NCBI GenBank assembly: GCA_050740255.1
Contig: JBOICV010000164.1
Span: forward strand, 15,035-79,034
Direction of reading: 5' to 3'
From: Nevskiales bacterium
Lineage (GTDB): Bacteria > Pseudomonadota > Gammaproteobacteria > Nevskiales > JBOICV01
DNA: 64,000 nucleotides
The stretch's first letter is position 1. Every line of letters starts with the position of its first letter. Shown piece after piece: positions 6,903-26,522 of the stretch. A program made the position numbers and the translations under genes. The notes beneath the pieces were generated by a model. The model made no database searches. It saw only the letters and a list, made by a program, of their open reading frames with translations, and had not been told where the DNA came from.

Positions 6903-7667
6903 TCATGCCAGATAGCCGCCGTCGGCGGTGATACAGCTCCCGGTCACATAACTGGCGGCATCCGACGCCAGGAACAAGATGGCGGGTGCGATCTCGTCTG
7001 GATGTGCCACCCGCTGCATCGGCACATTGGGCAAAAAGGTCTTGAGCATCTGGTCGTTCTTGACCAGGGCCGAGGCGAACTTGGTATCGGTGATGCCGGG
7101 CAATACCGCGTTCACGCGGATCTTGTGCGGCGCGCATTCTTTGGCGAAAGCCTGCGTCATGTTGATGATGGCGGCCTTGGTCACCGAATAAATCGCCTGG
7201 AACATGCCCGGGCTGACGCCGTTGATTGAGGCGGTGTTGACGATGCTGCCGCCGCCCTGCCTCTTCATAATCTGCCCGATTTTCTGCGACATGTAGAAAA
7301 AGCCGCGCACGTTCACATCTATGGTTTTTTCCATCGCATCGAGCGGCGTGTCGAGCACATGGCCGAAGTAAGGATTGGCGGCGGCATTGTTCACCAGGAT
7401 ATCCACTCGTCCGAACTGTTTCTCGACCTCGGCGGCGAAGGCGTCAATCGCCGTCACTTCACCAACGTGACAGACCAGCGCCGTCGCTTTGCCGCCTTCC
7501 TTCAGGATTGCTTCTGCGACCGCACCGCTGCCGTCCAGTTTGCGGCTGGAGCAGATCACATGTGCGCCGTAAGCGGCGAGCAGCCTGGCGGTGCTCTCGC
7601 CGATGCCGCGTGAGGCGCCGCTGACGATGGCAACTTTGCCGCTGAGGTTAAAGATGTCCTTTTTCAT
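6903..7667 (-). CDS. SDR-family oxidoreductase
   Basis: 254 aa. GASRGIG cofactor motif, NNAA, and the YSVTK catalytic Tyr/Lys. Confidence 0.9.
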   Translation of the reverse strand: MKKDIFNLSGKVAIVSGASRGIGESTARLLAAYGAHVICSSRKLDGSGAVAEAILKEGGKATALVCHVGEVTAIDAFAAEVEKQFGRVDILVNNAAANPYFGHVLDTPLDAMEKTIDVNVRGFFYMSQKIGQIMKRQGGGSIVNTASINGVSPGMFQAIYSVTKAAIINMTQAFAKECAPHKIRVNAVLPGITDTKFASALVKNDQMLKTFLPNVPMQRVAHPDEIAPAILFLASDAASYVTGSCITADGGYLA

Positions 7668-7688
7668 GGGTTGTCCTGAAGAATCGAA

Positions 7689-8756
7689 CTAGAGATCGGA
7701 CTTGGCAATGACTTCGTCGCAAATCTTGCCAAGATAAGTCACGAACTGGCCGAACATCGCAAAACGCTGGTCGGTCACTTGCTTGTGGTAGTAGCGGTAG
7801 TAAATCTGCTGGGCAATCACCGCCAGGCGAAACAAGCCAAACACATAGTAGAAATCGACATTCTCTACTTTGACTCCCGTCTGTGCTGCGTAACGCGCGA
7901 CCATTTCCTTGCGCGTCAGCATGCCGGGCAGATGAGTCGGGCCCATGCGCGACAGTTGCAAGGGCGCCGGATCGTTTTTTTCGACCCAGTAGGACAGGGT
8001 GCAGCCAAGGTCCATCAAGGGATCGCCCAGCGTAGTCATTTCCCAGTCGAGCACGCCGATGATTTGCAGCGGGTTCTCTTGGTCGAGCACCACGTTGTCG
8101 AATTTGTAATCGTTGTGGATGATGCCGATATAGCCTGAGTCGCCGGGCTGTTTGTCCTGCAGCCATTGCATGATGGCTTCGCAACCGGGCACATCGTCGG
8201 TCTTGGCTTTGCCGAAGCGCCCCATCCAGCCTTCGATCTGCCGCTTGACGTAACCCTGCGGGTGTCCGAAATCCGCCAGCCCCGCCTTGACGTAGTCCAC
8301 TTTGTGCAGCTTGGCCTGTAGATCAATCAGATTCTCGCAAAGCTGGCGACATTGCGCCGTCGTAAGCGGCATGTCCTTGGGCAAGTCCTTGCGCAGCACT
8401 ACGCCGTGAAAGCGCTGCATCAGATAAAACGGGGCGCCGATGACGGACTCGTCTTCGCAATACGCATAGGCTTTCGGCGCCTGCGCGAACAGCGGCTGCA
8501 GTTTCGACAGCACGCGGAATTCGCGGCCCATATCGTGCGCGCTCCTGGCCTTGGTGCCCGGCGGCGGGCGTCGCAGCACCATTTCGGTATTGCCGACGGT
8601 GACCAGATAAGTGAGATTGGAATGCCCACCGGGAAACTGTGCGATGGAAATGGCGCCCTTGAGTTCCGGCAAGGTTTGGCGGACATGGGCTTCGACCTTG
8701 GCGGTATCCAGCTCCTCCCCTTTACGGAACTGCGTCGCGGAATCTTCAGCGGTCAT
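7689..8756 (-). CDS. phosphotransferase (APH/choline-kinase-like) family protein
   Basis: 355 aa. HNDYKFDNVVL catalytic loop and DWEMTTLGDP motif. Confidence 0.85.
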   Translation of the reverse strand: MTAEDSATQFRKGEELDTAKVEAHVRQTLPELKGAISIAQFPGGHSNLTYLVTVGNTEMVLRRPPPGTKARSAHDMGREFRVLSKLQPLFAQAPKAYAYCEDESVIGAPFYLMQRFHGVVLRKDLPKDMPLTTAQCRQLCENLIDLQAKLHKVDYVKAGLADFGHPQGYVKRQIEGWMGRFGKAKTDDVPGCEAIMQWLQDKQPGDSGYIGIIHNDYKFDNVVLDQENPLQIIGVLDWEMTTLGDPLMDLGCTLSYWVEKNDPAPLQLSRMGPTHLPGMLTRKEMVARYAAQTGVKVENVDFYYVFGLFRLAVIAQQIYYRYYHKQVTDQRFAMFGQFVTYLGKICDEVIAKSDL

Positions 8757-8798
8757 GCGGCTGTGTTGTGCGGCCAGGCGGTGGGCCGGGGGCTCAGT

Positions 8799-9488
8799 TT
8801 AGGCCGGGTTGAGCATGCGCTCCACTATCTCGATAACGAAATCCGCATAACGCTCCACGTCCACGCCACGGCTGCGGTACTTGCCGCGCTTGAGATACCA
8901 ATCTTGCAGCATCGCCTTTAGCAGGGCCGCGGTCAGTTGCGCGTCAGTCGCGCGGAACAGGCCCGCGGCTTGCCCTTGCTCGATCAACTCCCGAAACAGC
9001 GTCTCAGTGGCGATCTCCGCCTCTACCGCCTGTTGCCGTTCGGCTGGCGCCAGATTTTTGGCCTCCATATACGAAAAGTAAAACCAGGCGCGCAGAACTT
9101 CCGACAAATATAAGTGCGCGCGGATCGCCGCTCGAAGTTTCTCGCGCGGCTCGTGGAGGCCCTCAAGCTGCCGACTCAGCGTACGCAGCGCCAGTCTGTG
9201 GCCATGCGTCTGAATCAAGGCCACCAGATCATCCTTGCTGCGGATGTATGCATAAAGCCCGCCCAGGCTCATGCCGGTGGCCTTGGCCAGATCGCGCAGG
9301 CTCATGCTGTGAAAGCCCTTCTCATTGGCGAGGGTTAGCGTGGCCTCGATGATGGTGACCAGCTTGGGCACCGCCACCGCTTCGCTCTGCACCTGGAACT
9401 GGGCGCTATGTTCCCGGTAAAGCTCGCGCACGATGCCCTGCATCGTCAGGCCGATGTCGCGCCGGAACTCTTTGAGAGTTCTCGTCAT
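8799..9488 (-). CDS. TetR-family transcriptional regulator
   Basis: 229 aa with an N-terminal HTH (GFHSMSLRDLAKATGMSLGGLYAYIRSKDDL). Confidence 0.9.
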   Translation of the reverse strand: MTRTLKEFRRDIGLTMQGIVRELYREHSAQFQVQSEAVAVPKLVTIIEATLTLANEKGFHSMSLRDLAKATGMSLGGLYAYIRSKDDLVALIQTHGHRLALRTLSRQLEGLHEPREKLRAAIRAHLYLSEVLRAWFYFSYMEAKNLAPAERQQAVEAEIATETLFRELIEQGQAAGLFRATDAQLTAALLKAMLQDWYLKRGKYRSRGVDVERYADFVIEIVERMLNPA

Positions 9489-9497
9489 GTGGTTTCG

Positions 9498-10211
9498 CTA
9501 GCGATAAGTGATTAACGCGGGGTCGGCGGCCAGGTACAGATGCGTGATGTTGTTGAGCTCCAGCAGGTAGTAACCCGAGCGGCGCACCTGTACTCGCGTG
9601 ATGGAAGCGTTGGCGATGCCCCAGTTGACGCGCATGGCCATATCGTCCGACAGCTTCAACGCGGCGCGCACCGCCACCGAAATCGCGCCGCCGGAAGTAA
9701 AGACCGCGACGTGTTCATCCTTGGCATGGCGCTCATGCAAGCGCGTCAGACCGGCTTCAACCCGCGCGACGAAATCCGTCCACGACTCCATCTGGCCGTG
9801 CTCGGAAGTCTCGCCGCGCAACCAGCAGGCGATCATTTGCTCGAAGGCGCGCTGAAACGTACGCCGGTCCTTGAACAGCAGCGTGCGATCGGCCTGCAGC
9901 ATGGCGGCCAGCTCGGCATCCGCCTTTAACGCGGCCGGCAGATAGCATTTGAACAAGCCATTGGCGTCATACTCGTTGAATGCGCTTTCCGTCTGGGGCG
10001 CCGGCATCGCGCCATGGGCTCGCACCGCAATCTCAGCGGTATCCGCCTGGCGCAACATGTCGCCGGAGTAGACGCCGGCAAAACTCAGGCCGAGTCGTTT
10101 AAGATGGCGGCCGGTGACTTCGGCCTGCCGTTGGCCAATCGCCGAGAGGCGGTCATAATTGTCGCCGCCGAAAGAAGCTTGTCCGTGGCGGATGAGATGA
10201 ATATGAGCCAT
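9498..10211 (-). CDS. histidine phosphatase (phosphoglycerate-mutase-like) family protein
   Basis: 237 aa. N-terminal LIRHGQ catalytic motif, with downstream His/Glu in the expected context. Confidence 0.85.
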   Translation of the reverse strand: MAHIHLIRHGQASFGGDNYDRLSAIGQRQAEVTGRHLKRLGLSFAGVYSGDMLRQADTAEIAVRAHGAMPAPQTESAFNEYDANGLFKCYLPAALKADAELAAMLQADRTLLFKDRRTFQRAFEQMIACWLRGETSEHGQMESWTDFVARVEAGLTRLHERHAKDEHVAVFTSGGAISVAVRAALKLSDDMAMRVNWGIANASITRVQVRRSGYYLLELNNITHLYLAADPALITYR

Positions 10212-10260
10212 AAAGCCCTAATGAAAATTTTATCGGTATGTGTAACATATTATTATCGTT

Positions 10261-10290
10261 GATATTTGTCAATATCGAACGAACGTTCGA
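10261..10290. promoter_or_regulatory. candidate operator: two adjacent perfect palindromes in an AT-rich divergent promoter region
   Basis: GATATT-TGTC-AATATC (10261-10276) overlaps TCGAACG-AA-CGTTCGA (10275-10290). They lie between the phosphatase-TetR-kinase-SDR operon (minus) and the saccharopine-dehydrogenase-like gene (plus). Confidence 0.4.
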
Positions 10291-10307
10291 TTGAGATTAT
10301 ATAGGAG

Positions 10308-11369
10308 TTGAACTTGGATAAACGCACCTGGATGATTTACGGCGCTAACGGCTACACCGGCGAGTTGATTGCGCGCGAGGCGAAGAACCGCGGGCTCAAA
10401 CCGATTCTCGCCGGCCGCAGCGGCGACAAACTCGCGCCGCTGAGCAAGGAGCTTGACTTCGAGTGCCGCGTCTTCGATCTGGGCGACGCGGAGCAACTTG
10501 CCAGGAATCTGATTGGGATAAAGCTGGTACTGCATTGCGCGGGGCCTTTTTCCGCCACCAGTGCGCCGATGATCGAGGGCTGTTTGAAGGCCAAGGCGCA
10601 TTATCTCGACATAACCGGCGAGATCAGCGTGTTCGAGCACGCGCAGGCCCAGCATGCACGTGCACGCGAGGCCAATATCGTCGTCTGCCCTGGTGTTGGC
10701 TTCGACGTCATTCCGACTGACTGCGTCGCCGCCGCGCTAAAAAATGCTTTACCGGATGCGACCCATCTCACATTGGGTTTCGATTCAAGCTCCGGCTTTT
10801 CGCCCGGCACCGCCAAGACTTCGGTTGAAGGGCTGGCGCAGGGCGGTCGCGCGCGCGTCAACGGCAAACTCCAGCGCGTGCCGCTGGCCTACAAGACGCG
10901 TCGCATCGATTTCGGCGACGGCGTCAAGCTGGCGATGACGATTCCCTGGGGCGATGTGTCCACCGCTTACTACACGACCGGTATTCCGAACATCGAGGTT
11001 TTTATCCCGGCCTCGCCGAAGCTGGTCAGCATCCTCAAGCGGCTGAACTATATCCGCTGGCTGCTGGGCTTCGGCCCGATACAGGGCTTGCTCAAGCAGC
11101 AGGCGGCTAAACAAAAAGGCCCCAACGCCGAACAGCGCGAACAATTACCGACCTTTGTCTGGGGCGAGGCCAAGAGCGCGGCCGGCGTGACCAAGACCGC
11201 GCGCATCAAAACCGCGAATGGTTACGCGCTGACCGTTACCGGCTCGCTCGCGGTCACCGAGTTTCTGCTGCGCAACGAGGTACGCGGCGGCGCCTATACA
11301 CCGGCCAAACTCATGGGCGCGCAACTGGTGGAGAAACTGCCCGGCAGTAGCGCGCTGGCGCTGAGCTAG
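10308..11369 (+). CDS. saccharopine dehydrogenase NADP-binding domain protein
   Basis: 353 aa with N-terminal Rossmann motif IYGANGYTG. TTG start at 10308 (alternative ATG at 10332). Confidence 0.8.
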   Translation: MNLDKRTWMIYGANGYTGELIAREAKNRGLKPILAGRSGDKLAPLSKELDFECRVFDLGDAEQLARNLIGIKLVLHCAGPFSATSAPMIEGCLKAKAHYLDITGEISVFEHAQAQHARAREANIVVCPGVGFDVIPTDCVAAALKNALPDATHLTLGFDSSSGFSPGTAKTSVEGLAQGGRARVNGKLQRVPLAYKTRRIDFGDGVKLAMTIPWGDVSTAYYTTGIPNIEVFIPASPKLVSILKRLNYIRWLLGFGPIQGLLKQQAAKQKGPNAEQREQLPTFVWGEAKSAAGVTKTARIKTANGYALTVTGSLAVTEFLLRNEVRGGAYTPAKLMGAQLVEKLPGSSALALS

Positions 11370-11388: not shown

Positions 11389-12321
11389 CTAGCCGGCTTT
11401 AGCCAACATCGTCTCAAGCTGCGCGCTGAGTCCCAGACTACGGGCTTTCTGCCGCAGCAGTTTGGGCTTTACGCCTTGCGTCAGCGCGAACTGTGTCAGG
11501 CGCTGCTGCGCTGACTCGCCCATGCTGTTGATGATCGGCAGCAGCACATCCCACAGGTCTTGCATCTGCACCGCTTTGAGCATGCTGCCCAGCACGGCAT
11601 CGTCCTGCTGCGCGGCGAGGTCCGCCAGTTTTTTGCGGGTCTTGTCGCCGACTGCGGCCATCAGCCCCAGGGCTTCGTCCCAGTAGCCATCGGTATCAGC
11701 GCCGCCACTCGCCGCGGTTTGGATCAGGCTGGCGAGCCGAGCGGGGCTCATGAAGCCGACGATCTGGTCGATGCGCTGTGGCGACTCCAGAAAGGACGCT
11801 ATCTGCAACAGCACGGCGTCGTCATGAATCGCGTGAATGACCGTCTCCAACGTACTGTCGAGCAGATAATCCACAAACCGCGCCATGACCACGAACTCGC
11901 GCCGCTTGATGAGCTCCTGCGCGATGGCGACCACCTGCTCCGCCGGCAGACGTGCGATGACGCCCTTGGCGCTGCGCGGATCCAGTTCGAGGCTCACATC
12001 GGCGAGGAAACCGGTCGGCAGTTTGCGCGCCGTCTCCAGCGCCTGTTCGGCCGGCAGCAGCCCGGCCACACGCGCACACAGCATGGCGCCGAATACTTTT
12101 TCGCCGATCATGGCGTTGATGCCGGCCGGCAGCAGCCGGCTGGCCGCGGCCACGCGCTGCAAACGCGAACGAGCATCATCGAATAACGCGTCCGACATCT
12201 GCTCGCGCAGCGCGCGGATGGCCAGCGGGTCCACCGCCTGCAGGAACTCCAGCTTCTGCGGCGCCAGGCCGAGCAGCCGGCCGAGCTTGACGATCTCCGC
12301 CCGGCCGCCGAGCTGATTCAT
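11389..12321 (-). CDS. hypothetical all-helical protein (last gene of the DUF1302 operon)
   Basis: 310-aa ORF with host-like codon usage. Its ATG overlaps the stop of the upstream 75-codon ORF (ATGA at 12318-12321). No family recognised. Confidence 0.7.
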   Translation of the reverse strand: MNQLGGRAEIVKLGRLLGLAPQKLEFLQAVDPLAIRALREQMSDALFDDARSRLQRVAAASRLLPAGINAMIGEKVFGAMLCARVAGLLPAEQALETARKLPTGFLADVSLELDPRSAKGVIARLPAEQVVAIAQELIKRREFVVMARFVDYLLDSTLETVIHAIHDDAVLLQIASFLESPQRIDQIVGFMSPARLASLIQTAASGGADTDGYWDEALGLMAAVGDKTRKKLADLAAQQDDAVLGSMLKAVQMQDLWDVLLPIINSMGESAQQRLTQFALTQGVKPKLLRQKARSLGLSAQLETMLAKAG

Positions 12322-12545
12322 TTTCTGAAGAGAATCTTTTTTATCGGGATGCGCAGCAGCGCCGGAATAAAGCTGAGCGAGTCTTCCACCGCGCGGTGCA
12401 GCGCCCTGCGCTGACCCGCGCGCGCGTCGCGGTAAGCTTGCAGCAGGATGGTCAGTTGCGCGTCGGGGAGTTGCTCGAATGCGTCCAGCTCAAGCTGCGG
12501 CGACTTCAACTCGCGGCGCAATTCTTCCAGAGCCTGCCTGGTCAA
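12318..12545 (-). CDS. hypothetical small protein
   Basis: 75-aa ORF 29 nt downstream of the RND gene, translationally coupled to the next gene. No family recognised. Confidence 0.5.
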   Translation of the reverse strand: MTRQALEELRRELKSPQLELDAFEQLPDAQLTILLQAYRDARAGQRRALHRAVEDSLSFIPALLRIPIKKILFRK

Positions 12546-12574
12546 GCGTTTCCCTCGGGGCTTGCGGCGGCCCG

Positions 12575-14980
12575 CTACTTCTCGCTCATCGCCGCGTCCG
12601 CGCCCGCGGTCAAGTCCTGGCCCTTATGCTTGAGCTCCTCGTGCGAGAAGAAGTAGGCCAGCGCCGGCAGCACCACAATCGCGCCAATCATGTTCGCGGT
12701 GAAACCGAACACCAGCAGCACGCCCATATCGCGCTGAAACTGCAGCTCGGAGAACAGCCACATGGCGACGCCGGCGGCCAAGCCTATTCCCGTAAACAGG
12801 GTGGCCTTGCCGGTCGAGCGCATTTTTTGATAGTAGGCTTCCTCGAGAGTCAAACCTTTTCGCAGGCCGTCGGCCACGACCGAGTAGCTGTAAATGCCGT
12901 AGTCCACGCCGATGCCGCAGGCAAAGGCCAGCACCGGCAGCGTCGCCACTTTCTGGCCGATGTCCATGGCGACCATCACCGCGTAGCCCAGCAGAGTGAC
13001 CAGCGACAGCGGCAACATGATGCATAGCACGCCTGACAGCGTGCGGAAAGACAGGAACACGAACAGCGTGATCGCGCCGTATACCCAGTACACCACCGGC
13101 AGCTCGTTTTTCTTGACCTCCTCATTGGTCGCGGCCATCACGCCGACATTGCCGGAGGCCAGGCGGAATTTCACGCGCGGCTCCTGGTTCATATTGTCCT
13201 GGTAATGCTTCACCTTCGCGATCAGATCCGTAATGGTTTCAGCCTTGTGATCGCGGGTGAAGATGAACAGCGCCAGCCCGTCGCAATTGTCGTTGAGGAA
13301 GCCGGTGGTGGTCGGCACCAGCGCCGTGGATTGCGCCAGCGCGTATTGATTGCGCGGCAACACCTCGGCGCTCGGGCGGCCTTCGCTTAAGCCCTCATAG
13401 GCCAGCTTGGCCAGATCCAGCAAGGACAGCACGTCGCGCACACCATCCTGGTTGTACATATACCAGGAGAAGCGGTCTATCTCGCCCATGATGCTGTAGT
13501 CAATGCAGGCATCCGGCACGGTTTCAGCGATGACCTTGAGCTGGTCCACGCCCATCGCGAAGTTGCCGGCGACGACGGCTGCGTCCTTGTTGAAGCGCGA
13601 ATCGGGCCGCAGTTCCGGCACGCCTTCGGTGGTGTCGCCGATGCGGACGAAGTGGAGTTGCGTGGCGCCAAACCCGGCCAGCACCGCGCAAATCAGCACG
13701 ACGGTGGTGGCCGGGCCGCGACGGCACAGCACCGCCATCTTCTTGAATACGACATCGCCGAGCCGCTCGCGCAAGGCCTGCGCCTCGCGGAATTTCTCGA
13801 TGTTCGGGATGCGCATGAAGGACAGCACCGCCGGCAGCAATACCTTGTTGACCATGATCACGCCGAGCATGCCGAAGGCCGCGTTCACCGACATCTCGCG
13901 GATCACGTCGATATTGATCAGGTAAATGGTCGAAAAGCCCACCACATTGGCGAGCAGCGCCACCACGCCCGGAATCGCCAGGTTGCGGAAGGTCGCGAGC
14001 GAAGCCTGATAACCGGTCGCGCCCTTGGTGGAGATTTCATTGGCCCAGGAGCTGACGTATTGCACGCCGTGGCTCACCGACACCGCCATGATCAGGAAGG
14101 GCACCAGCAGCGCGAACGGATCCAGGCCGTAGCCAATCGTTTTCAGCAGGCCCAGCTCCCAGATGCAGGCCACACAGGAAGTGGAGACGACGATGATCGC
14201 CATGGTCAGCGAGCCGACGTAAATCCACAGCAGCGCGCCCATCATGAATAGCGCGACGAAGAAGAAGCCGGCGACCTGGATCGACGCGTCGGTCATGTCG
14301 TCCACGACCTTGGCGAAGCCGATGATGTGCACTGAAGTGTTTTCGGTCTCGTACTTGGCGCGGATCTCCTCGAGCTTGTCGCCGACCTTGACGTAATCAA
14401 GCGGCAGGTTGGTCTCGGGATCGTTTTCCAGCAGCTCCGCCGCGATCAGCGCTGCGCTGTGATCCTCGGACACCAGCCGTCCGATCACATTGGCCTTGCC
14501 GACGTTGATGCGCAGGCGCTCCATCATTTCGGGTGTCGGTACGTAATCAGGCGGCACCACGGTGGCGCCGGCCAGGCCGTCCTCGATCACCTCAACATAA
14601 AGAATGCTGGGCGAGAAAATCGAGGTGACGCGTGCGCGGTCCACGCCCGGGATGAAGAACACCTCGTCGTTGACCTCGCGCAGCACTTCCATGAATTCCG
14701 GCTGATAGATGTCGCCCTTGTGGTTTTTGAGCGCGACCAGCACCGTGTTCGCTCCGCCGAAGTCCTTGTAATACTCCAGAAAGGTCTGCATATACGGGTG
14801 GGCCTGCGGCACCATCTTCAGCCAGCCGGCCTGCGGCTTGAGCTGGGCGGCCTGCACGGCGAAGAACACGGTCAGCAGCGCCAGCACCGTCAGCGTGATC
14901 TTGCGGTGCTTGAAAATCGGCGGCTCGACAATCTTGAGAATCGCCCTCGTGAAAGAGGTCTGACGCATCGGTGCGGCCAT
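12575..14980 (-). CDS. RND/MMPL-family transporter (12-TM type with two large periplasmic loops)
   Basis: ORF 12575..15013; start taken at ATG 14980 (MAAPMRQTS..), 10 nt after the upstream stop. Duplicated hydrophobic halves and about 800 aa length are typical of MMPL/HpnN-like RND exporters. Confidence 0.85.
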   Translation of the reverse strand: MAAPMRQTSFTRAILKIVEPPIFKHRKITLTVLALLTVFFAVQAAQLKPQAGWLKMVPQAHPYMQTFLEYYKDFGGANTVLVALKNHKGDIYQPEFMEVLREVNDEVFFIPGVDRARVTSIFSPSILYVEVIEDGLAGATVVPPDYVPTPEMMERLRINVGKANVIGRLVSEDHSAALIAAELLENDPETNLPLDYVKVGDKLEEIRAKYETENTSVHIIGFAKVVDDMTDASIQVAGFFFVALFMMGALLWIYVGSLTMAIIVVSTSCVACIWELGLLKTIGYGLDPFALLVPFLIMAVSVSHGVQYVSSWANEISTKGATGYQASLATFRNLAIPGVVALLANVVGFSTIYLINIDVIREMSVNAAFGMLGVIMVNKVLLPAVLSFMRIPNIEKFREAQALRERLGDVVFKKMAVLCRRGPATTVVLICAVLAGFGATQLHFVRIGDTTEGVPELRPDSRFNKDAAVVAGNFAMGVDQLKVIAETVPDACIDYSIMGEIDRFSWYMYNQDGVRDVLSLLDLAKLAYEGLSEGRPSAEVLPRNQYALAQSTALVPTTTGFLNDNCDGLALFIFTRDHKAETITDLIAKVKHYQDNMNQEPRVKFRLASGNVGVMAATNEEVKKNELPVVYWVYGAITLFVFLSFRTLSGVLCIMLPLSLVTLLGYAVMVAMDIGQKVATLPVLAFACGIGVDYGIYSYSVVADGLRKGLTLEEAYYQKMRSTGKATLFTGIGLAAGVAMWLFSELQFQRDMGVLLVFGFTANMIGAIVVLPALAYFFSHEELKHKGQDLTAGADAAMSEK

Positions 14981-14990
14981 GTGATTTCCC

Positions 14991-16091
14991 CTAGTTGATG
15001 GCGCCGAGATCAACTACGCCGCGCTTGCCGACGCCGATCACGCGTCCGTCCCGCGCCAGCGCACCGGACAGACTGGCATCGGTGGGCAATTTGAGCGGCG
15101 TCAAACTCGCCGCCGCCAGATTGGTCTTCTCGCCCAGGCCGTTGACGCCCACCAGCAATACCTCGCCGTCCGGCAGCTTGGCCGCGCCGAACATGCTCTC
15201 GCTCAAGCCGCCGTTCAGTTGCTGCCAGCCGAGTTGGGTGATGCCCGCCGCATCGCCTGTGGTCAGACGGGCCGCGGGATCAAACGCGGCCACGTCCTGC
15301 GTGGCCACGGCGCCGATATCGGCCGCGACATACACCCGGCCACGCAGACCGTAAACCAGCACGCCGCGCTCGCCCATCGGCACCGCGCCGAACATGCTGC
15401 CGGCGTAGGGCGAGTGCAGCAACTGCCAGTTTTCGCCGCGGTCCGTGGAGGTCGCCAGCAGGCTTTTCTCGCCGGCGATGAACAGCGTGCCGTTGCCAAG
15501 CTGCACAATCGTGTTGAAGTGCTGGCCGAGATCGCCGATCGGGAACTGGCGCAGTTGCCAGTTGGCGCCGCCATCGGCCGTGGCCAGATAAGCGCCATAG
15601 CCGCCGACGGCGATGCCGTTCTGCGCATCGAGCATCAGGATGTCGAACAACTGCCGCGCTTCGGCGTTATGGTGTTGCAGCGCCCAGCTGCCGCCGCCAT
15701 CGTTCGTATGCAGAATGGCGCCGTCGTAGCCGACCGCCCAGCCGCGTTGCGCGTCCAGAAAGCGCACCCGCGTCAGCATGGTGTTGACCGGGGAGGGGAC
15801 TTGTTTCCAGGTCTTGCCGTCATCCGAGATCACGATACTGCCGCGCTGGCCGACCGCGATCAGCCGCTGGCCGGTATCGGCGATATCAATCATGCGGTAC
15901 TTCGCCGCCAACGGCGCTTCGAGCGCGGGCTGCGGCTTGATTGAATGCGGCGGCGGCGGGGCGGCCTCATCGCTCGCCGCTTCCGCCGTCGCTTCGGGCG
16001 GCGGCACAGCGTCCGCCGCTTTCGGTTCTTCGTCTTTGCCGCCGCAGGCGCTCAGCGCCAGCAACAGCATCCAGCCGATGTGCATTTTCAT
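14991..16091 (-). CDS. Ycf48/BNR-like beta-propeller lipoprotein
   Basis: ORF 14991..16211; start at ATG 16091 gives MKMHIGWMLLLALSACGG (lipobox). Repeated ..DGG.SW.. / ..G..W.. propeller blades resemble photosystem-II assembly factor Ycf48 homologues. Confidence 0.8.
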   Translation of the reverse strand: MKMHIGWMLLLALSACGGKDEEPKAADAVPPPEATAEAASDEAAPPPPHSIKPQPALEAPLAAKYRMIDIADTGQRLIAVGQRGSIVISDDGKTWKQVPSPVNTMLTRVRFLDAQRGWAVGYDGAILHTNDGGGSWALQHHNAEARQLFDILMLDAQNGIAVGGYGAYLATADGGANWQLRQFPIGDLGQHFNTIVQLGNGTLFIAGEKSLLATSTDRGENWQLLHSPYAGSMFGAVPMGERGVLVYGLRGRVYVAADIGAVATQDVAAFDPAARLTTGDAAGITQLGWQQLNGGLSESMFGAAKLPDGEVLLVGVNGLGEKTNLAAASLTPLKLPTDASLSGALARDGRVIGVGKRGVVDLGAIN

Positions 16092-16122
16092 GACTGCTCC
16101 CCGGCGAGCATGACTGACTCTC

Positions 16123-17946
16123 TTATTTGGTGCGCGACAGCTTGGCCATATTGGATTGGGTGAAATAACTGTCGTCGTAACTGATCTCGAAATCCGAAAT
16201 CGCGTCCTCATTGGTCAGGCTGGTGAGGAAATAGCGCTTCGCCTGCAAGTCGTAAATCGCTTCCGGAATGCCGGTCACCGTGGGAATGAAGGGCAGCGTT
16301 ATCAGAGATGCCTCCTGAAACTTCCACAACTGGCCGCGCGCGTCGTAGCAGTCCACCGCGGCGACGGACCAACTGTCCTCGTCCACGTAGAACACGCGCC
16401 GCGCGAACTTGTGGCGGATGCCTTGCCGCACGTTCGCTTCCACCACCCAGATGCGGTGCAGCTCGTAGCGCGCCAGATCCTGGTTGATGTGACCGGGGCG
16501 GATAATGTCGGTGTATTTGAAGGTCGGGCTGTTGAGCAGCGCCGAGTTGTAGGGAATCAGCATTTCTTTCTTGCCGATCAACTTCCAGTCGTAACGGTCG
16601 AGGTTGCCGTTGTAGACGTCCACCTGATCGAAGAACTGCTCGCCGTCGGAACCGATGTTGGGGCCGTCATAGCCCACGTCCGGCGCGCGGTTGGTGCGGC
16701 CGAGACCGGGGTTGTAAAGCCAGGCGGAACGGCCGCTGCCGCCGGTCATGCCGGCGTATTCGTGCACCAGCGTGATCTGGCCGGCCACGCGCGGCGGCTC
16801 CAGCACGCGCTGCAGGTAGTACACCAGAATTTTGTTATCGGCGCCGGGCGGCTCTTTCAGATTGGCGTACTTGAGCTTCACGTCCTCGACCAGTTTGCTG
16901 ATCTTGTAGCTGCCGTCCGGTTTGACGATGGCCTGGTTGTTATAGCGCCGCACGGCCGAACCGCGGAATTTCATCTTGTGGTTCCACAAGACCTCGGCGC
17001 CGCTCTGCGGAATCGGAAAGGGGAAACCGAGTCTCGCGCCGGACACATCATCGGTGCCCTTCAGCTCCGCGCTGCTCGCATTCGCAATCGTGGCCTTGTA
17101 AATCTCCTCCGGGAAAAAGCCGTTGCGCGCGGTTGGATACACAATCATCTTGTAGTCGGCATAGGCCTTGAACATGGCCTTGTGCCCTTCGGTCAGCTTG
17201 CTTTCGTGCTGCGCCAGATTGTCGCGCGTGACGACATACAACGGCCGCAGGAAATCCTCCGGCTTGGTGCCCGGCACCTGGTAGGTGAGGAAATCGCGCA
17301 CATTGGGCGGCATGTACTTCAGCATGAGATCGCTGATGTCCTGCGCACCTTGGCCGCTGGTGACCAGCGCCGACAACTCCAGCACCGAGCCGACATCGAA
17401 TGCGTTCACCAGCCGCGTGAAAATATTCGGATCTTTTTTCAGCTCGGTGATGACGGCGACGATGTCTGCCTCGATCTCCGGCAGCTTTACTGCTCTCGAC
17501 TTTACGTCGGCAATCAAGCCATCCACACTCTTGCCACGGCCGGAGAGTATCCGGTTCATATCGGCCTTGAGCGCGGCATCGGCCGACAGCATCTTCTCGA
17601 CCACCGCGACGACCTTGTCGCCCTTGGCCGGGTCGGCGTCCATGATTCTCTGGCCGGTCGCCAGCATGTCGCTGATCGCGCCGGCATCGCCGACCAGTTG
17701 CTGAATGTCCTTGACCAGCTGGGTGCGGAAATCTTCCAGCTTGGCGCGGGTAAAGGCTTTCGGCGTCGGGCCGAAGGAATCGGCGCCGGTCCAGACCGGG
17801 ATCGAGCCCTCCGCGTTGCCGGGCTTTTCCGCCCCGACCGGCGTCAGCTCATTGCCGAGCTTGGCGGCCTGTTCCGGCGGCGCTTTGGCCCAGGCTGCGC
17901 TGCTGATGGCCAGCATGGCCACCAGCAGCTTGCCGGATTGCTTCAT
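16123..17946 (-). CDS. DUF1329-family periplasmic protein (LolA-like), long paralogue
   Basis: 607 aa with a signal peptide. GFPFPIP and WNH..R motifs. The C-terminal ~370 aa are highly similar to the adjacent 507-aa paralogue. Confidence 0.8.
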   Translation of the reverse strand: MKQSGKLLVAMLAISSAAWAKAPPEQAAKLGNELTPVGAEKPGNAEGSIPVWTGADSFGPTPKAFTRAKLEDFRTQLVKDIQQLVGDAGAISDMLATGQRIMDADPAKGDKVVAVVEKMLSADAALKADMNRILSGRGKSVDGLIADVKSRAVKLPEIEADIVAVITELKKDPNIFTRLVNAFDVGSVLELSALVTSGQGAQDISDLMLKYMPPNVRDFLTYQVPGTKPEDFLRPLYVVTRDNLAQHESKLTEGHKAMFKAYADYKMIVYPTARNGFFPEEIYKATIANASSAELKGTDDVSGARLGFPFPIPQSGAEVLWNHKMKFRGSAVRRYNNQAIVKPDGSYKISKLVEDVKLKYANLKEPPGADNKILVYYLQRVLEPPRVAGQITLVHEYAGMTGGSGRSAWLYNPGLGRTNRAPDVGYDGPNIGSDGEQFFDQVDVYNGNLDRYDWKLIGKKEMLIPYNSALLNSPTFKYTDIIRPGHINQDLARYELHRIWVVEANVRQGIRHKFARRVFYVDEDSWSVAAVDCYDARGQLWKFQEASLITLPFIPTVTGIPEAIYDLQAKRYFLTSLTNEDAISDFEISYDDSYFTQSNMAKLSRTK

Positions 17947-17950
17947 GCGC

Positions 17951-19474
17951 TCACTTCGTGCGCGACAACTTCGCTATGTTCGACTGCGTGAAGTAAGCGT
18001 CTTCCCAGTTGATTTCCCAGTTCGAGTAAGGATCCTCGTTGGTCATCGTAGTGGTGAAGTAGCGCTTCGACTGCAGGTCGTAAATCAGCTCCGGAATGCC
18101 CGACACCGTCGGGATAAACGGAATCGTCAGCAGATGCGCTTCCTGCACCTTCCACATCTGGCCGCGCGCGTCGTAGCAGTCCACCACCGCGATGGACCAG
18201 CTGTCCTCGTCAATATAGAACACGCGCTTGGCGAATTTGTGGCGGATGCCCTGGCGCACGGTCGCTTCAACCACCCAGACGCGATGCAGCTCGTAGCGCG
18301 CCAGCACCGGGTTGATATGGCCGGGCCGGATCAGGTCGCCGTATTTCAGTGAAGGCGCGTTGATGATCCAGGAGTTGTAGGGGATGTAAAGCTCTTTCTT
18401 GCCGACCAGCTTCCAGTCGAAGCGGTCGAGCGCGCCGTTGAACACGTCAACCTGATCGAAGAACTGCTCGCCGTCGGAACCGATCTGCGGCCCGTCATAA
18501 CCCACGTCCGGCGCGCGATTCACGCGGCCGAGGCCGGGGTTGTACAACCAAGCGGAACGGCCGCCGCCTTCTATCGAACCGGCGGTCTCATGCACCAGGG
18601 TGATCTGGCCGGCCACGCGTGGCGGCTCCATCACGCGCTGCAGATAAGTGAGCAACAGTTTGTTGTCGGCCGGCGGTGGCTCCTTGAGATTCGCGTATTT
18701 GAACTTTACGTCCTCGACCAGCTTGGAGATCTTGAAAGTGCCGTCCGGCTTGACGATGGCCTGGTTGTTGAAGCGCCGCACCGCCGAGCCACGGTACTTC
18801 ATCTTGTGGTTCCAGAGCGCCTCGGCGCCGCTTTGCGGAATCGGGAAGGGAAAGCCGAGCTTCGCCCCGCTCACCTGATCGGTGCCGGTCAGCGTGGCGT
18901 TGGCGGCGTTCGCCACCGTGGCCTTGTTGACTTCATCCGGGAAGAAGGCGTTGCGCACCGAGGGGAAGACCACCATCTTGTAAGTGTTGGGATAGGTCTT
19001 GAACATCGCCTTGTGGCCTTCGGTGAGCTTGCTCTCGTGCTCGGCGAGGTTGTCCTTGGTGATCACGACCTGCGCCTCGACCGGGCTCTTGGTCATGCCG
19101 GGGATTTTCACATCCACCGATTCGCGGATATTGGCCGGCATCACCGCCACGATCTTCGGAATGATCGCGATCAACCCCGCGGCATCCTTGGCCGCCTCGG
19201 CTTCCTTGAGTAGTTCGCGGCTCTTGGGATCAAGGTTTTTGCGCTGCTCCTCGAGCCCGGCGTGCGTGATCTTGATCAGCGATTCGGGAAATGCGGTCTT
19301 GCCGATCCACTCCGTGATGCTGCCGTCGGCATTGCCCTTCGCTTCGGCGCCAGCGAAGGTCAGCTCGCCGCCGAGCTTGGCCGCTTGATCGGGCGGCGCC
19401 TTGGCCCAGACCGCGTTGGCGGCCAGCACGTATACAAGGCTGGCGATCAGCCACTTGCTCAAAATCGTTTTCAT
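17951..19474 (-). CDS. DUF1329-family periplasmic protein (LolA-like), short paralogue
   Basis: 507 aa with a signal peptide and the same GFPFPIPQSGAE..WNHKMK..RGSAVRR motifs. Confidence 0.8.
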   Translation of the reverse strand: MKTILSKWLIASLVYVLAANAVWAKAPPDQAAKLGGELTFAGAEAKGNADGSITEWIGKTAFPESLIKITHAGLEEQRKNLDPKSRELLKEAEAAKDAAGLIAIIPKIVAVMPANIRESVDVKIPGMTKSPVEAQVVITKDNLAEHESKLTEGHKAMFKTYPNTYKMVVFPSVRNAFFPDEVNKATVANAANATLTGTDQVSGAKLGFPFPIPQSGAEALWNHKMKYRGSAVRRFNNQAIVKPDGTFKISKLVEDVKFKYANLKEPPPADNKLLLTYLQRVMEPPRVAGQITLVHETAGSIEGGGRSAWLYNPGLGRVNRAPDVGYDGPQIGSDGEQFFDQVDVFNGALDRFDWKLVGKKELYIPYNSWIINAPSLKYGDLIRPGHINPVLARYELHRVWVVEATVRQGIRHKFAKRVFYIDEDSWSIAVVDCYDARGQMWKVQEAHLLTIPFIPTVSGIPELIYDLQSKRYFTTTMTNEDPYSNWEINWEDAYFTQSNIAKLSRTK

Positions 19475-19560
19475 CGCATTATCTCCTGCACCAAGGCGGC
19501 AGCGCGCCGCCGAATGAATGTCAGGCGCCTCAAAACCTAAGCGCCTTACCGGGTCCTGCG

Positions 19561-21672
19561 TCAGAACGAATAAGTTACGCCGAACAGCACGCTGTCGCGA
19601 TCCGCGAGCAAATTGTCTTCTCCCGCATAGTGATTGAACAGAATACTGCCGGACCAGTCATTGCCGTACTCGAAAAAGCTGCCGTACACGATCCAGCGGT
19701 TGCCTTCCACATAATTCTGCGCGGGCGAAGGCGCGATACCGTCAATGTCCTCCATCCACAGAATCGTGGGCTTCAGCGTGAGGCCGAGATCGAATACGTT
19801 GGCGTAGTTGAACTGCACCAGGCTGCGCACACCCCAGGCGAAGTCATCCGCCCAGCCTTCCGTCATCTGGGTTGGATTGATGCGCAGGGCATGCGTCGTG
19901 CCCGGCGGATCGCCGGTGCCGTCTTCGCCGGGGCTGGGATGGGTCTGCTCGCCGGTGCCGTTGAAGAACAGCTCGCCCGGTTCGGGCATGTCCGCCACGT
20001 GGGTGAAGCCGGCCTCGAGCAGGATGGTGATGTCCTCGGCGCGGAACAGATTCTCGCCGGAGACCAGCTTGATCGCGTTCAGCACGAACTGGCCCACCTT
20101 GAGCCGCTCGAAGCCAGGCACATACTCGTTGGCCGAAATCTCCTCGCCGCGGAAAACGCTGATGAAATCCGGCACGAAGGTTCGCGCGCCAGGAATGGTA
20201 CCGAGGGTCAGGCCCGGAATGACGCCCACGCCGATCGGGATATCCTGGGCCGGCAAGGCCGGTTGCTGCGCGGCCATGAGCACATCCGTGAACAGCAATT
20301 GCGCCGGCTGGTTCGGCCGGTAGGCATACTCGCCCGAGAAAGACCAGCCGAAGCCGGTGGTGTTGAAGCTGACGCCGAACAAATGGATGTCTTCCGGGTA
20401 GTCCAGAATGATGCGCGGCGTGTCGAGGGGCAGCGGCTCCAACCCGATGCCCAGGACATTCAGTGTGCCGTTAAAACCCCGGCAGGCGATGGCCGCGGTT
20501 ACGATATCTCCGGGAATGAGCGCATCGCGCAAGCAGGAGCGGTCCGCCGCGAACACGCTCGCCAGCGGCAGGCGGCTGTGGTAATTCATTGCGTAAATGC
20601 CGAACTGGGTGCCGTTGTTGAAGTTTTCGAGATACCAGTTCAGGCGCAGGCCGTACTGACCCCCTTCGTCGGGCGCGAAGGCTTTCTCGTTGGATACGGA
20701 GACCGTTGCCGTCGAGCTGCTGATCAGGCCGGTCATGCCGGCGAACCCGCCACGCCGGTCGGGATCCTCCGCGATCTGGCCGAGGTGCAGAAAAGCCCGG
20801 CGGCCGCCGCCGGCGATGTCGCTGGTGGAGAAAAAGCTGCCCGCCGGATCCGGCCGTACCGGCTCCCAGTCGAACTGGTAAAAGGCTTCCAGGTTGATCG
20901 CCTCGTTGACGTCCACGCCGATCAAGGCCATGCCGGTGGGAATAGCCAGCTCGCTGAGCGCCAGCCCCGGCTGACGCGCCGCGATCGCATCCAGCGGGTT
21001 GATCTCGTCCAGGGTATTGAACAGGTGCAGATTGGCCTCGCCCCAGCGCACGCGTTGATAGCCCACCGCCACGTTGACGTTCTTGTCGAACACGGAGAAG
21101 GGCCTGGCGATGAAGGCCTCGCGGAACTGGATTTTCTTCGCCACTTTCTCCTCGATAGTTTTCTTGCGGTCGGTGAAGCGCGGCTGAAAGCGCGTATTGC
21201 CATGCTGCTCGATGAAGTTGTTATTTACCGTGTCGTAAAAACCGATGCCGGAGAGCTTGAGCGTCCAGTCGCTCCACTTAACCGCCAGCTCGCTATTGAT
21301 CTTGGCCAGGCCGCTGATCAGATCGCCCTTGTCGTAGTTCAGATTGCCGTCGTCGGTGTTGTGCAGCAGAAAACCGCCTTCCGCGGCGATCAGACGCCGG
21401 TTCGGCGCGGGGTCCATATTGGCGGACAGGCAGTCGTCGGCGTTACACAGATTCTCCTGGCCCGGCACATTCAGCTTGCCGAGCAGCGCGTTGTCGCGCT
21501 CTTCCAGGCGCCAGCCGGCGCCTACGGAAAGTTTTGTGATCAGCTCGAGCGTGATCGCGCCTTCAGCAAATTCAAAGTTCAGCGCCCAACTCGCGGGCGC
21601 GACCGCGAACGATAAAAAAACAGACACACCCAGCCGTAAAAGCAGGTGCAAGGCTCTCTCCTCCTGACGCAC
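19561..21672 (-). CDS. DUF1302-family outer-membrane protein
   Basis: 703 aa. Signal peptide, beta-rich sequence, YQRVRWGE motif, C-terminal ..GVTYSF (aromatic terminus typical of OM barrels). The GTG start at 21672 is uncertain. Confidence 0.8.
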   Translation of the reverse strand: MRQEERALHLLLRLGVSVFLSFAVAPASWALNFEFAEGAITLELITKLSVGAGWRLEERDNALLGKLNVPGQENLCNADDCLSANMDPAPNRRLIAAEGGFLLHNTDDGNLNYDKGDLISGLAKINSELAVKWSDWTLKLSGIGFYDTVNNNFIEQHGNTRFQPRFTDRKKTIEEKVAKKIQFREAFIARPFSVFDKNVNVAVGYQRVRWGEANLHLFNTLDEINPLDAIAARQPGLALSELAIPTGMALIGVDVNEAINLEAFYQFDWEPVRPDPAGSFFSTSDIAGGGRRAFLHLGQIAEDPDRRGGFAGMTGLISSSTATVSVSNEKAFAPDEGGQYGLRLNWYLENFNNGTQFGIYAMNYHSRLPLASVFAADRSCLRDALIPGDIVTAAIACRGFNGTLNVLGIGLEPLPLDTPRIILDYPEDIHLFGVSFNTTGFGWSFSGEYAYRPNQPAQLLFTDVLMAAQQPALPAQDIPIGVGVIPGLTLGTIPGARTFVPDFISVFRGEEISANEYVPGFERLKVGQFVLNAIKLVSGENLFRAEDITILLEAGFTHVADMPEPGELFFNGTGEQTHPSPGEDGTGDPPGTTHALRINPTQMTEGWADDFAWGVRSLVQFNYANVFDLGLTLKPTILWMEDIDGIAPSPAQNYVEGNRWIVYGSFFEYGNDWSGSILFNHYAGEDNLLADRDSVLFGVTYSF

Positions 21673-21681: not shown

Positions 21682-21715
21682 TTACATCCGGTAATGTAAG
21701 AGTTAATACATTAGA
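21682..21715. promoter_or_regulatory. candidate operator array (TTACAT / TAATGTA / TACATTA motifs)
   Basis: TTACAT-CCGGTA-ATGTAA palindrome (21682-21699) followed by TAATACATTA. Located in the AT-rich divergent region between the DUF1302 operon and the Tyr-rich protein gene. Confidence 0.3.
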
Positions 21716-21805
21716 CGCAATTGTGTCAAGCGCAGACGCGCCACAGCGTGCTGGTGTTGCGGTAAGCTGCGCATATTCGCAAAAAAACTATGGGAGGAAG
21801 GGACC

Positions 21806-22561
21806 ATGAAAGCCATCGTGCACCGGACGGTGCTGACCTGCTGCACAGTCATGCTGCTGGGTATTATCGGAGTGGCACAGGCCGGCTACTACCACCCCTA
21901 TAGCGGCGAGTTTTATTCGCCATCCCCCACCGGCTACGACTATCGTTACGACGCCGGTTACTACCAGCCGTATAGCCCCGACTACTTCGCCGCCTACGAC
22001 GGCGATTACCACTCCCCATATCGCTCCGACTACTCGCCGCCTTATCGCGCTGGCCTGCGGGGTAGCAGTCAGGAATGGGAAGTGATTTGCGCCCATGAGG
22101 ACGAAAAACACAACAAGCGCTGCGTCGCCTATACCGCGCTGGAGGGTCTGGTTGGCGGTGTCTGGGGAGCTGCGCACGCGCTCAGCGTATCCAGCAACGA
22201 ACCTGGGGACTACCGGCTTGGCTGGACTCCGCGGCTTTATGTGCCGGACGGCGAGCATCCGCTATTCCTGCAGGTGGACAATCGCTACCGGCGCAGCTTC
22301 TCGGCGGGCAAGAAAGGTTACCGTGGCAATGAATTCGACGGTTATCGCATCGAGACCGACGCCGCCTTGATCAACGCGATGAAGCGCGGCCGCGAGCTTA
22401 GCCTGAGCTATACCGATATCTTCGGCGACACCCGGCAGGTGCGTTTCTCGCTGATGGGTGTAACGAGATCATTACAAATGACCGATCAGCGCCTGACGGC
22501 AAAACCGAAAATGGTGGCGCCAGCGCAAGCACCGGTGGCACGCCTGTACCGGCATAAGTAA
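21806..22561 (+). CDS. secreted protein with Tyr/Pro-rich repeat region
   Basis: 251 aa. Strong SD (GGGAGGAAGG) 4 nt upstream and a signal peptide ending ..GVAQA. It is followed by ~60 aa with 16 Tyr in Y-x-P-Y-S/R-like repeats, then a globular C-terminal domain of unknown family. Confidence 0.75.
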   Translation: MKAIVHRTVLTCCTVMLLGIIGVAQAGYYHPYSGEFYSPSPTGYDYRYDAGYYQPYSPDYFAAYDGDYHSPYRSDYSPPYRAGLRGSSQEWEVICAHEDEKHNKRCVAYTALEGLVGGVWGAAHALSVSSNEPGDYRLGWTPRLYVPDGEHPLFLQVDNRYRRSFSAGKKGYRGNEFDGYRIETDAALINAMKRGRELSLSYTDIFGDTRQVRFSLMGVTRSLQMTDQRLTAKPKMVAPAQAPVARLYRHK

Positions 22562-23407: not shown

Positions 23408-23484
23408 GCGCCCGTAGCTCAGCTGGATAGAGTGCTGCCCTCCGAAGGCAGAGGTCGTGAGTTCGAATCTCACCGGGCGCGCCA
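23408..23484 (+). tRNA. tRNA-Arg (anticodon CCG)
   Basis: Folded by hand into a cloverleaf. Acceptor GCGCCCG/CGGGCGC, D arm GCTC..GAGT, anticodon stem CTGCC/GGCAG with loop CT-CCG-AA, T arm GTGAG-TTCGAAT-CTCAC, encoded CCA. Confidence 0.95.
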
Positions 23485-26496: not shown

Positions 26497-26522
26497 ATAA
26501 CGCAGCATCTGGTTTGGAGAAG

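Follow-up and report, generated by a model that had tools for sequence, protein, structure and literature searches.

A predicted AmeABCD-type trans-envelope transporter operon with a duplicated DUF1329 gene and an appended cytoplasmic gene pair in a Nevskiales bacterium

We analyzed a 64,000-nucleotide (nt) stretch of DNA from a Nevskiales bacterium (GenBank assembly GCA_050740255.1, contig JBOICV010000164.1, positions 15,035 to 79,034), hereafter the window, in which seven co-directional genes form an operon on the minus strand at positions 11389 to 21672. A first-pass annotation, made from the sequence alone, had treated all seven as parts of one envelope machine. The operon consists instead of a five-gene envelope system and a two-gene cytoplasmic module. 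The five genes probably specify a trans-envelope transporter for hydrophobic or amphiphilic molecules of the type exemplified by AmeABCD, to which the cytoplasmic pair would be coupled as an accessory. The core is a member of a known, named kind; what is new here is the duplication of the DUF1329 gene and the presence of the pair, which recurs elsewhere. The genes, with lengths in amino acids (aa) and open reading frame (ORF) limits where the start was revised, are as follows.

19561-21672, minus strand: DUF1302 outer-membrane beta-barrel protein (AmeA-like); PF06980, E 4.5e-137

17951-19474, minus strand: DUF1329 copy a, 507 aa, predicted periplasmic LolA-like protein (AmeB-like) with signal peptide; PF07044, E 3.7e-128; LolA_like, 9.7e-10

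16123-17946, minus strand: DUF1329 copy b, 607 aa, AmeB-like; PF07044, E 1.2e-123; LolA_like, 5.4e-10

14991-16091 (ORF to 16211), minus strand: Ycf48-like BNR beta-propeller lipoprotein (AmeC-like, COG4447 type); PSII_BNR/Ycf48, E 1.1e-20

12575-14980 (ORF to 15013), minus strand: HAE3-type resistance-nodulation-division (RND) inner-membrane transporter (AmeD-like); TIGR00921, E 1.3e-40, at 139 bits against an NCBIfam trusted cutoff of 352

12318-12545, minus strand: 75-aa basic, helical, predicted cytoplasmic protein, first of the pair; no family, homologue conserved upstream of the large gene

11389-12321, minus strand: 310-aa predicted cytoplasmic alpha-solenoid protein (ARM/PUF-like), second of the pair; MgtE_N only, 2e-3; AlphaFold2 (AF2) model

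The operon structure reported earlier was borne out. Six long ORFs and one of 75 aa run in the same direction, and the GC content at third codon positions of the long ones (0.79 to 0.85, in a stretch of ca. 61% GC) is as expected of real genes. The gaps of 4 to 90 nt given in the first-pass annotation were essentially right: with revised starts the spacings are 86, 4, 31, 10, and 29 nt, followed by a 4-nt ATGA overlap in which the ATG of the 310-aa gene overlaps the stop codon of the 75-aa gene. This tight spacing, together with the overlap, indicates that the seven genes are likely co-expressed. Terminator and promoter scans of the window gave counts no higher than in shuffled sequence, with no convincing internal terminator in the operon. 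For the DUF1302 gene, TTG at 21651, located 8 nt after AGGAGG, is a likelier start than GTG at 21672 and gives the signal peptide MHLLLRLGVSVFLSFAVAPASWA. The BNR gene was revised to ATG at 16091, preceded by the ribosome-binding site GGGGAG, giving the N-terminus MKMHIGWMLLLALSAC with the lipobox LSAC, and the RND gene to ATG at 14980; the ribosome-binding site AGGAGA precedes the ATG of DUF1329 copy a, and the TTG start of the 75-aa gene lies 6 nt after GAGGGA. All seven genes, including both DUF1329 copies and the 75-aa ORF, are kept in the same order in two related genomes (loci L089 and L090), at 60 to 95% aa identity per gene, so the arrangement is not a product of chance. The order DUF1302, DUF1329, BNR, RND, with gaps of 4 to 86 nt in the window, is also found in 14 related loci, and a protein search found the 310-aa protein to be identical to one from a Nevskiales bacterium metagenome-assembled genome.

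Families were assigned with Pfam and NCBIfam profiles, with PDB sequence searches in addition, and the DUF1302, DUF1329, and Ycf48-like assignments of the first-pass annotation held. The DUF1302 match spans the full PF06980 profile, and hydropathy reveals one hydrophobic segment, N-terminal and signal-like; a PDB sequence search found no solved homologue of this protein, no experimental structure is known for the family, and the published AF2 models of the family are 18-stranded barrels (ECLIPSE). Both DUF1329 copies pass the LolA_like cutoff and have signal-peptide-like N-termini. The best PDB sequence match of the BNR protein is 2xbg, a Ycf48-like structure (7.6e-17), and its lipobox is followed by an Ala/Pro-rich linker of ca. 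55 residues. As to the transporter, previously described as an MMPL-type RND pump, its RND nature stands, with MMPL matches of 5.8e-15 to 1.2e-15, but it is probably HAE3-type and not a true MmpL, the HAE3 match being far stronger. Other weak matches were to ACR_tran (3e-7) and HpnN (2e-12), and also to BstA and SecF, and there were distant PDB matches to the MmpL4/5 and HpnN structures (E 1e-4 to 1e-5). Hydropathy places a first transmembrane segment (TM1), a loop, a transmembrane cluster at residues 232 to 445, a second loop, and a further cluster at residues 627 to 779, the two periplasmic loops being of ca. 180 aa each. The motifs SVSHGVQY and GVDYGIY are invariant in 10 relatives and were assigned, by position only, to TM4 and TM10; their His and Asp-Tyr residues, respectively, are compatible with a proton relay, as exists in MmpL3. 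Overall, the signal peptides on the barrel and both DUF1329 proteins, the lipobox on the propeller, and the RND-like topology of the pump fit the locations proposed for each component. No HlyD-type membrane fusion protein or TolC/OEP Pfam domain was found in the seven proteins or the flanking genes.

The closest characterized counterpart is AmeABCD of Castellaniella defragrans 65Phen, a monoterpene efflux system (Puentes-Cala and Harder 2018, PMC6394551). It comprises a DUF1302 outer-membrane protein (AmeA), a DUF1329/LolA-like protein (AmeB), a COG4447 Ycf48-like protein (AmeC), and an RND pump of the HAE3 family that has 12 membrane segments and two periplasmic loops (AmeD); every member of the AmeD lineage comes from a four-gene cassette of this kind (PMC6394551). 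Deletion of the ame cassette lowers monoterpene tolerance and increases Nile Red influx, and ameB mutants grow poorly on monoterpenes (PMC6394551). The window operon contains the same four families in the same order. It differs from the ame cassette in the tandem duplication of DUF1329, with extra N-terminal segments in both copies, in the two appended cytoplasmic genes, in having no monoterpene island around it, and in its host, C. defragrans being a betaproteobacterium and the Nevskiales gammaproteobacterial.

The same families have emerged from work on other bacteria, and the earlier view of the cluster as functionally unassigned does not hold, since AmeABCD is the same cassette, the families are cofit, and P. 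putida requires members of them for growth on specific substrates. Price et al. found the four families to be cofit in randomly barcoded transposon sequencing (RB-TnSeq) of Shewanella, Kangiella, and Pseudomonas and proposed the export of a cell-wall component, the phenotypes in Shewanella and P. stutzeri being pleiotropic and not substrate-specific. In Shewanella amazonensis (Sama_1588-1591) and Kangiella the four families are contiguous, as in the window, whereas in Pseudomonas they are divided between two loci and accompanied by LuxR- or AraC-type regulators, of which there is none adjacent in the window. Thompson et al. showed that P. putida PP_0765/PP_0766 and PP_2018/PP_2019 are needed on Tween 20 and butyl stearate. 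AlphaFold-Multimer predicts a DUF1329-propeller-pump trimer (Foldy, whose authors propose a substrate transport system) and a DUF1302-DUF1329 complex with an ipTM of 0.84 (ECLIPSE). The four cassette genes also lie next to an almA-like gene in the alkane-degradation island of a crude-oil P. aeruginosa, and DUF1302 and DUF1329 proteins occur in the outer-membrane-vesicle nanopods of Delftia. PA3923 of P. aeruginosa (laminin binding, biofilm) may also be a DUF1302 protein and was left out of the evidence.

More distant systems share parts of the design. With HpnN and the MmpL proteins (HAE3/HAE2) the window pump has in common the RND core, small periplasmic domains, and a presumably lipidic cargo; HpnN, the nearest characterized HAE3 pump, moves hopanoids towards the outer membrane and, unlike the window pump, has no dedicated outer-membrane barrel or co-transcribed periplasmic partner (PMC6394551). 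The AcrAB-TolC-type HAE1 systems follow a similar plan, with an RND pump in the inner membrane, adaptors in the periplasm, and a channel in the outer membrane, but in the window the adaptors are LolA-like and beta-propeller proteins and the channel is a DUF1302 barrel, with neither HlyD nor TolC/OEP. The likeness to the Lol pathway is limited to a LolA_like fold signal, and the energizing protein is an RND transporter instead of an ATP-binding cassette (ABC) complex of the LolCDE type. The alkane uptake proteins AupA and AupB of Marinobacter, located in the outer and inner membrane, respectively, were considered as possible DUF1302/DUF1329 proteins and rejected as a counterpart, as the paper states that AupA is FadL-like; Pfam found no FadL-type domain in the operon proteins.

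The two additions to the cassette noted in the first-pass annotation, a second DUF1329 gene and two genes without a family, are indeed present. DUF1329 copies a and b are 71% identical over their C-terminal 421 aligned residues, and the stretch that separates the conserved N-terminal motif from the DUF1329 domain is longer by ca. 100 residues in copy b, the domain starting at residue 238 in copy b and at residue 137 in copy a. Single-copy relatives (L017 and L019 to L021) are of the long type, as copy b. In a neighbor-joining tree of the DUF1329 domain, the a and b copies of the window, L089, and L090 form sister groups, with the single long copy of L017 just outside. This topology makes the second gene a lineage-specific tandem duplication that dates to the ancestor shared by the three genomes and has persisted in them. 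The barrel gene is next to copy a, and the genes for the propeller and pump are next to copy b, a placement that mirrors the two-locus split of the system in Pseudomonas and that hints that the two docking roles predicted for a single-copy DUF1329 may have been divided between the copies, which we regard as a reasonable guess. A natural split into two paralogues could reveal which face of DUF1329 binds the barrel and which the pump.

The 75-aa and 310-aa proteins had been counted among the envelope components. They are predicted to be cytoplasmic because hydropathy found no signal peptide and no hydrophobic or membrane segment in either, and they form a separate pair that is also present in Actinobacteria and Myxococcota. 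No Pfam, NCBIfam, or PADLOC model covers them; a defense function for the pair was considered and dropped, the PADLOC models giving no matches. The 75-aa protein is basic (isoelectric point 10.1) and all-helical in a single-sequence AF2 model of low confidence (pLDDT 67), carries the conserved C-terminal motif aLxH(I/V)PxLLRGxvRK(I/V)L, and is 68% identical in L089 and 60% in L090. The 310-aa protein, modeled by AF2 with a 40-sequence alignment, is an all-alpha solenoid of 21 helices (pLDDT 93.6, pTM 0.88). Foldseek searches of the PDB with this model returned designed armadillo, importin-alpha, and Pumilio repeats, none of them significant (E ≥ 0.011, TM-scores 0.24 to 0.40), and the family profile matched nothing below E 0.5 among PDB sequences. 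Because MgtE_N weakly matches 35 of 40 family members (best 2.8e-9, around residues 89 to 137), the central part of the protein is probably related to the MgtE_N helical domain, although the match of the window protein itself is sub-threshold (19 bits against a cutoff of 25.9). FliG_M gave a weak match in one family member. The all-alpha right-handed repeat and this weak similarity are shared with the MgtE/FliG helical repeats, whereas the rest of the protein is made of family-specific repeats of ca. 43 residues (LWxxLLPLxxxM) and is accompanied by the 75-aa partner gene. Identity as an MgtE magnesium channel was rejected, since CBS domains, the MgtE membrane domain, and membrane segments are all absent.

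An exhaustive profile search placed 1,118 clusters at 50% identity in the 310-aa family (E ≤ 1e-3), 626 of them below 1e-30. Members range from 238 to ca. 920 aa (maximum in the library, 921) through C-terminal expansion by the 43-residue repeat; length variants include P0005, P0006, P0028, P0108, L039, and L049, and P0044 ends in a predicted membrane helix. All library matches start at profile residue 1, and among the top 150 no fusion of the small and large proteins was evident, with no N-terminal extension of more than ca. 60 residues. The sole N-terminally extended case, P0144, was rejected as a fusion since it looks like a frameshifted gene call.

A locus scan with one genome per species, from which the best 80 of 182 confirmed loci were kept, detected the pair in Nevskiales (Nevskia, Solimonas, Stenotrophobium, Fontimonas, Stagnimonas, Algiphilus, and Salinisphaerales), in Actinobacteria (Solirubrobacterales, Streptomycetaceae, and Skermania), and in Myxococcota (Kofleriaceae); a pair in Perlucidibaca was found separately via protein search. 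In 79 of 86 loci, the gene directly before the large one, in the same orientation, encodes a homologue of the 75-aa protein; on gene order, the two therefore constitute an obligate pair. BLAST with the window proteins detected no DUF1302, DUF1329, BNR, or RND homologue in the flanks of any of the 39 actinobacterial loci. Actinobacteria are single-membraned and have no outer membrane, and on these grounds the pair cannot act as an intrinsic envelope subunit. The same BLAST comparison, which misses divergent cases, found that 23 of the 46 proteobacterial-type loci have one or more core components no farther than 10 kb away, to which the window, L089, and L090 add three; L006 and L092 are examples of missed loci in which Pfam finds a DUF1329 gene 2 kb from the pair.

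Where they occur together, pair and transporter genes are arranged in three ways. In form A (window, L089, L090, and L017) the pair follows the cassette, giving DUF1302-DUF1329-BNR-RND-pair. In form B (L014 to L016, L018, L022 to L025, L045, L047, and L053) the pair precedes it, as pair-DUF1302-DUF1329-BNR-RND, often with two acyl-CoA dehydrogenase genes or one for an AraC-type regulator ahead of it. In form C (L002, L026 to L028, and L050) a DUF1329-pair unit is divergent from DUF1302 and two acyl-CoA dehydrogenases, an AraC-type regulator lying in between instead in the variants L065 and L076. Form A also occurs with the DUF1302 gene replaced (L019 to L021, in Stenotrophobium and relatives): the genes upstream of DUF1329-BNR-RND-pair (1373-4165 in L019) encode a 639-aa secreted Lnb_N/DUF7840 protein and an alpha/beta-hydrolase lipoprotein. 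The incorporation of a hydrolase is in keeping with the ester-growth phenotypes of P. putida. The large-protein tree groups form B together and scatters form A, whereas the DUF1329 tree keeps form A together; because of this disagreement, the association looks to have been re-formed several times instead of inherited as one block. Repeated re-forming favors a functional link and disfavors tight co-evolution.

The neighbors of the pair consistently point to lipid acquisition and catabolism. Where no transporter gene is near, the Solirubrobacterales pair has a secreted alpha/beta hydrolase next to it, and enoyl-CoA hydratase and glutathione S-transferase genes adjoin some of the other pairs in this situation. 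Two acyl-CoA dehydrogenases and an AraC regulator neighbor the Perlucidibaca pair, and TetR regulators and an acyl-CoA dehydrogenase those of Skermania and Streptomycetaceae. An acyl-CoA synthetase, an ElbD-like reductase/ligase/acyltransferase, and a lipase maturation factor are also among the neighbors, and in L005 (Nevskiaceae) a phospholipase-C-type phosphoesterase gene lies directly upstream. A gene of this same Phosphoesterase family (E 8.9e-65) is located in the window at 58717-60186, 37 kb from the pair.

According to the mechanism that we favor, the HAE3-family RND protein, presumably driven by the proton gradient, would sit in the inner membrane with the Ycf48-like propeller lipoprotein as its partner. 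Pump and propeller would take up a hydrophobic or amphiphilic cargo from the inner membrane or periplasm, and the pump would pass it to the LolA-like DUF1329 proteins, which may shield the cargo or hand it over in the periplasm and deliver it to the DUF1302 outer-membrane barrel. Movement would thus be outward to the cell surface, and oily growth substrates, or products of their breakdown, would be cleared from the envelope. We infer this direction, as we do the cargo; outward transport is favored because RND transporters generally work outward and because the AmeABCD phenotypes are efflux-like. A trans-envelope conduit for a hydrophobic molecule, as already suggested by the first-pass annotation, agrees with the proposals of Price et al., the Foldy authors, and Puentes-Cala and Harder. 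The pair, with translation of its genes predicted to be coupled to the 3' end of the operon, would probably serve as an accessory scaffold or regulator that links the transporter to cytoplasmic lipid/fatty-acyl catabolism, and the helical-repeat fold modeled for the 310-aa protein suggests protein binding.

Several observations weigh against this interpretation. The HAE3 score of the pump falls below the trusted cutoff, and its placement in the AmeD lineage is tentative. The growth defects on Tween 20 and butyl stearate, as well as the catabolic neighborhoods, fit uptake equally well. The predicted fold of the 310-aa protein yields no functional assignment. The pair is found without core transporter genes in half of the proteobacterial and all 39 actinobacterial loci and is not an obligate subunit, and the incongruence of its tree with that of DUF1329 for form A argues against tight co-evolution.

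The cassette might conversely be an uptake route, in which fatty esters, lipids, alkanes, or terpenoids pass via DUF1302, DUF1329, and RND/propeller to the inner membrane and the pair couples the process to activation and beta-oxidation. We consider this somewhat unlikely, the evidence being divided. Characterized RND transporters work outward. HAE3 pumps in particular are known to move substrates into the periplasm, and the greater dye influx and lower tolerance upon AmeABCD loss are an efflux signature (PMC6394551); the Shewanella and P. stutzeri phenotypes of Price et al. are likewise pleiotropic and not substrate-specific. On the other hand, the growth failure of the P. putida mutants is specific to Tween 20 and butyl stearate, the Foldy authors propose substrate transport, and the poor growth of ameB mutants on monoterpenes (PMC6394551) points the same way, as do the operon-like arrays in which the Nevskiales cassette accompanies two acyl-CoA dehydrogenases, AraC-type regulators, and an acyl-CoA synthetase, and the location of the P. 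aeruginosa cassette by an almA-like gene. Export of an endogenous envelope lipid, outer-membrane, or cell-wall component, for envelope biogenesis or vesicles, is in our view quite unlikely; the effects on hydrophobic substrates would then be indirect, via an altered outer membrane. It is the proposal that Price et al. drew from pleiotropic cofitness, and it accords with the DUF1302 and DUF1329 proteins of the Delftia nanopods and with hopanoid movement by HpnN. Yet accessory catabolic islands often harbor the cassette, and genomes often carry several paralogous copies of it, which is unusual for core biogenesis, and no biosynthetic genes for a candidate lipid are adjacent to it in the window. 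That DUF1302 and DUF1329 are esterases hydrolyzing fatty esters at the cell surface, as Thompson et al. proposed to supply the missing hydrolysis step on Tween 20 and butyl stearate and as repeated in a 2026 preprint, is highly improbable: the families are a beta-barrel and a LolA-like fold, no hydrolase domain was detected, and the same group later recast both as transport components (Foldy).

With respect to the pair, it is unlikely that the two genes are an independent cytoplasmic module unrelated to the transporter and sharing its transcript by chance. The loci that lack nearby core genes (23 of 46 proteobacterial and 39 of 39 actinobacterial) and the incongruent trees would be expected if this were the case, but three arrangements in Nevskiales put the pair directly against DUF1302/DUF1329 genes, only 29 nt separate it from the pump gene, and the seven genes have stayed together in three genomes; moreover, roughly half of the loci have a core component no farther than 10 kb away, which, on a rough estimate that was not computed, seems far above chance for a gene family of few copies. 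A more ambitious version of the accessory role, which we hold to be doubtful, is that the pair is a new cytoplasmic partner of lipid machinery in both double- and single-membraned bacteria that, in Nevskiales, docks on or controls the pump, forming a six-protein assembly in which the DUF1329 copies are specialized. If true, transport across both membranes would thereby be tied to the breakdown of fatty-acyl compounds in the cytoplasm. The DUF1302/DUF1329/BNR/RND system occurs widely among Pseudomonas, Shewanella, and bacteria that degrade hydrocarbons and has clear mutant phenotypes, and the pair offers a recurrent cytoplasmic lead from an unannotated family of ca. 1,100 clusters whose neighbors point to lipid metabolism. 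The link is directly testable, as the pair lies beside DUF1302/DUF1329 in the cultivable Solimonas variicoloris, S. flava, Nevskia soli, Fontimonas thermophila, and Stenotrophobium rhamnosiphilum.

Two possible regulatory features were read from the operon sequence.

21682-21729, minus strand: candidate promoter and operator, parts of which are conserved in L089 and L090

19495-19511, minus strand: GC hairpin GGCGGC-gcgct-GCCGCC with no T-run after it, within the 86 nt that separate the DUF1302 gene from DUF1329 copy a

Upstream of the DUF1302 gene, TTGACA (21729-21724) is followed by a conserved ATGTATTAAC block, a candidate -10 region, and by two interlocked inverted repeats, TAATGTA/TACATTA (21713-21707 and 21698-21692) and TTACAT-N6-ATGTAA (21699-21682). 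The TTGACAC box, ATGTATTAAC, and ATGTAA are common to the window, L089, and L090, the TTACAT-N6-ATGTAA palindrome being full in L090 and partial in L089. We infer that the region may be a promoter with an operator over the transcription start. The 18-nt palindrome occurs once in the window, with at least one match also in 26 of 100 shuffles, and a second copy, sought across the window to define a regulon, was not found. The hairpin is absent from the terminators listed by the terminator scan and could possibly serve in mRNA processing or in different expression of the barrel and the downstream genes.

Divergent from the operon is a gene (21806-22561) for a secreted protein of 251 aa that is rich in Tyr and Pro and weakly IalB-like at its C-terminus; L089 and L090 have divergent genes of ca. 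200 aa in this position. A tRNA-Arg(CCG) gene (23408-23484) and two genes for Gcw_chp outer-membrane proteins (25663-27508) are also near. At the other end of the operon, a downstream block (6903-11369) contains genes for a short-chain dehydrogenase/reductase, an APH-type phosphotransferase, a TetR-family regulator (8799-9488, 2 kb from the operon), a histidine phosphatase, and a convergent saccharopine-dehydrogenase-like protein; its synteny is kept in L089 and L090, an extra TetR gene being inserted directly after the 310-aa gene in L089. Elsewhere in the window, positions 1253-1348 match the Rfam family RF02837, a Burkholderia anti-hemB small RNA unexpected in a gammaproteobacterium (51.6 bits, gathering threshold 49.5). 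A nitrogen-scavenging cluster at 27657-40635 encodes a urea carboxylase (1210 aa), two DUF1989 proteins, a glutamine-synthetase-like protein, a creatininase, an NMT1-type ABC transporter, and an allophanate hydrolase, and is followed by two ammonium transporter genes at 45174-48717.

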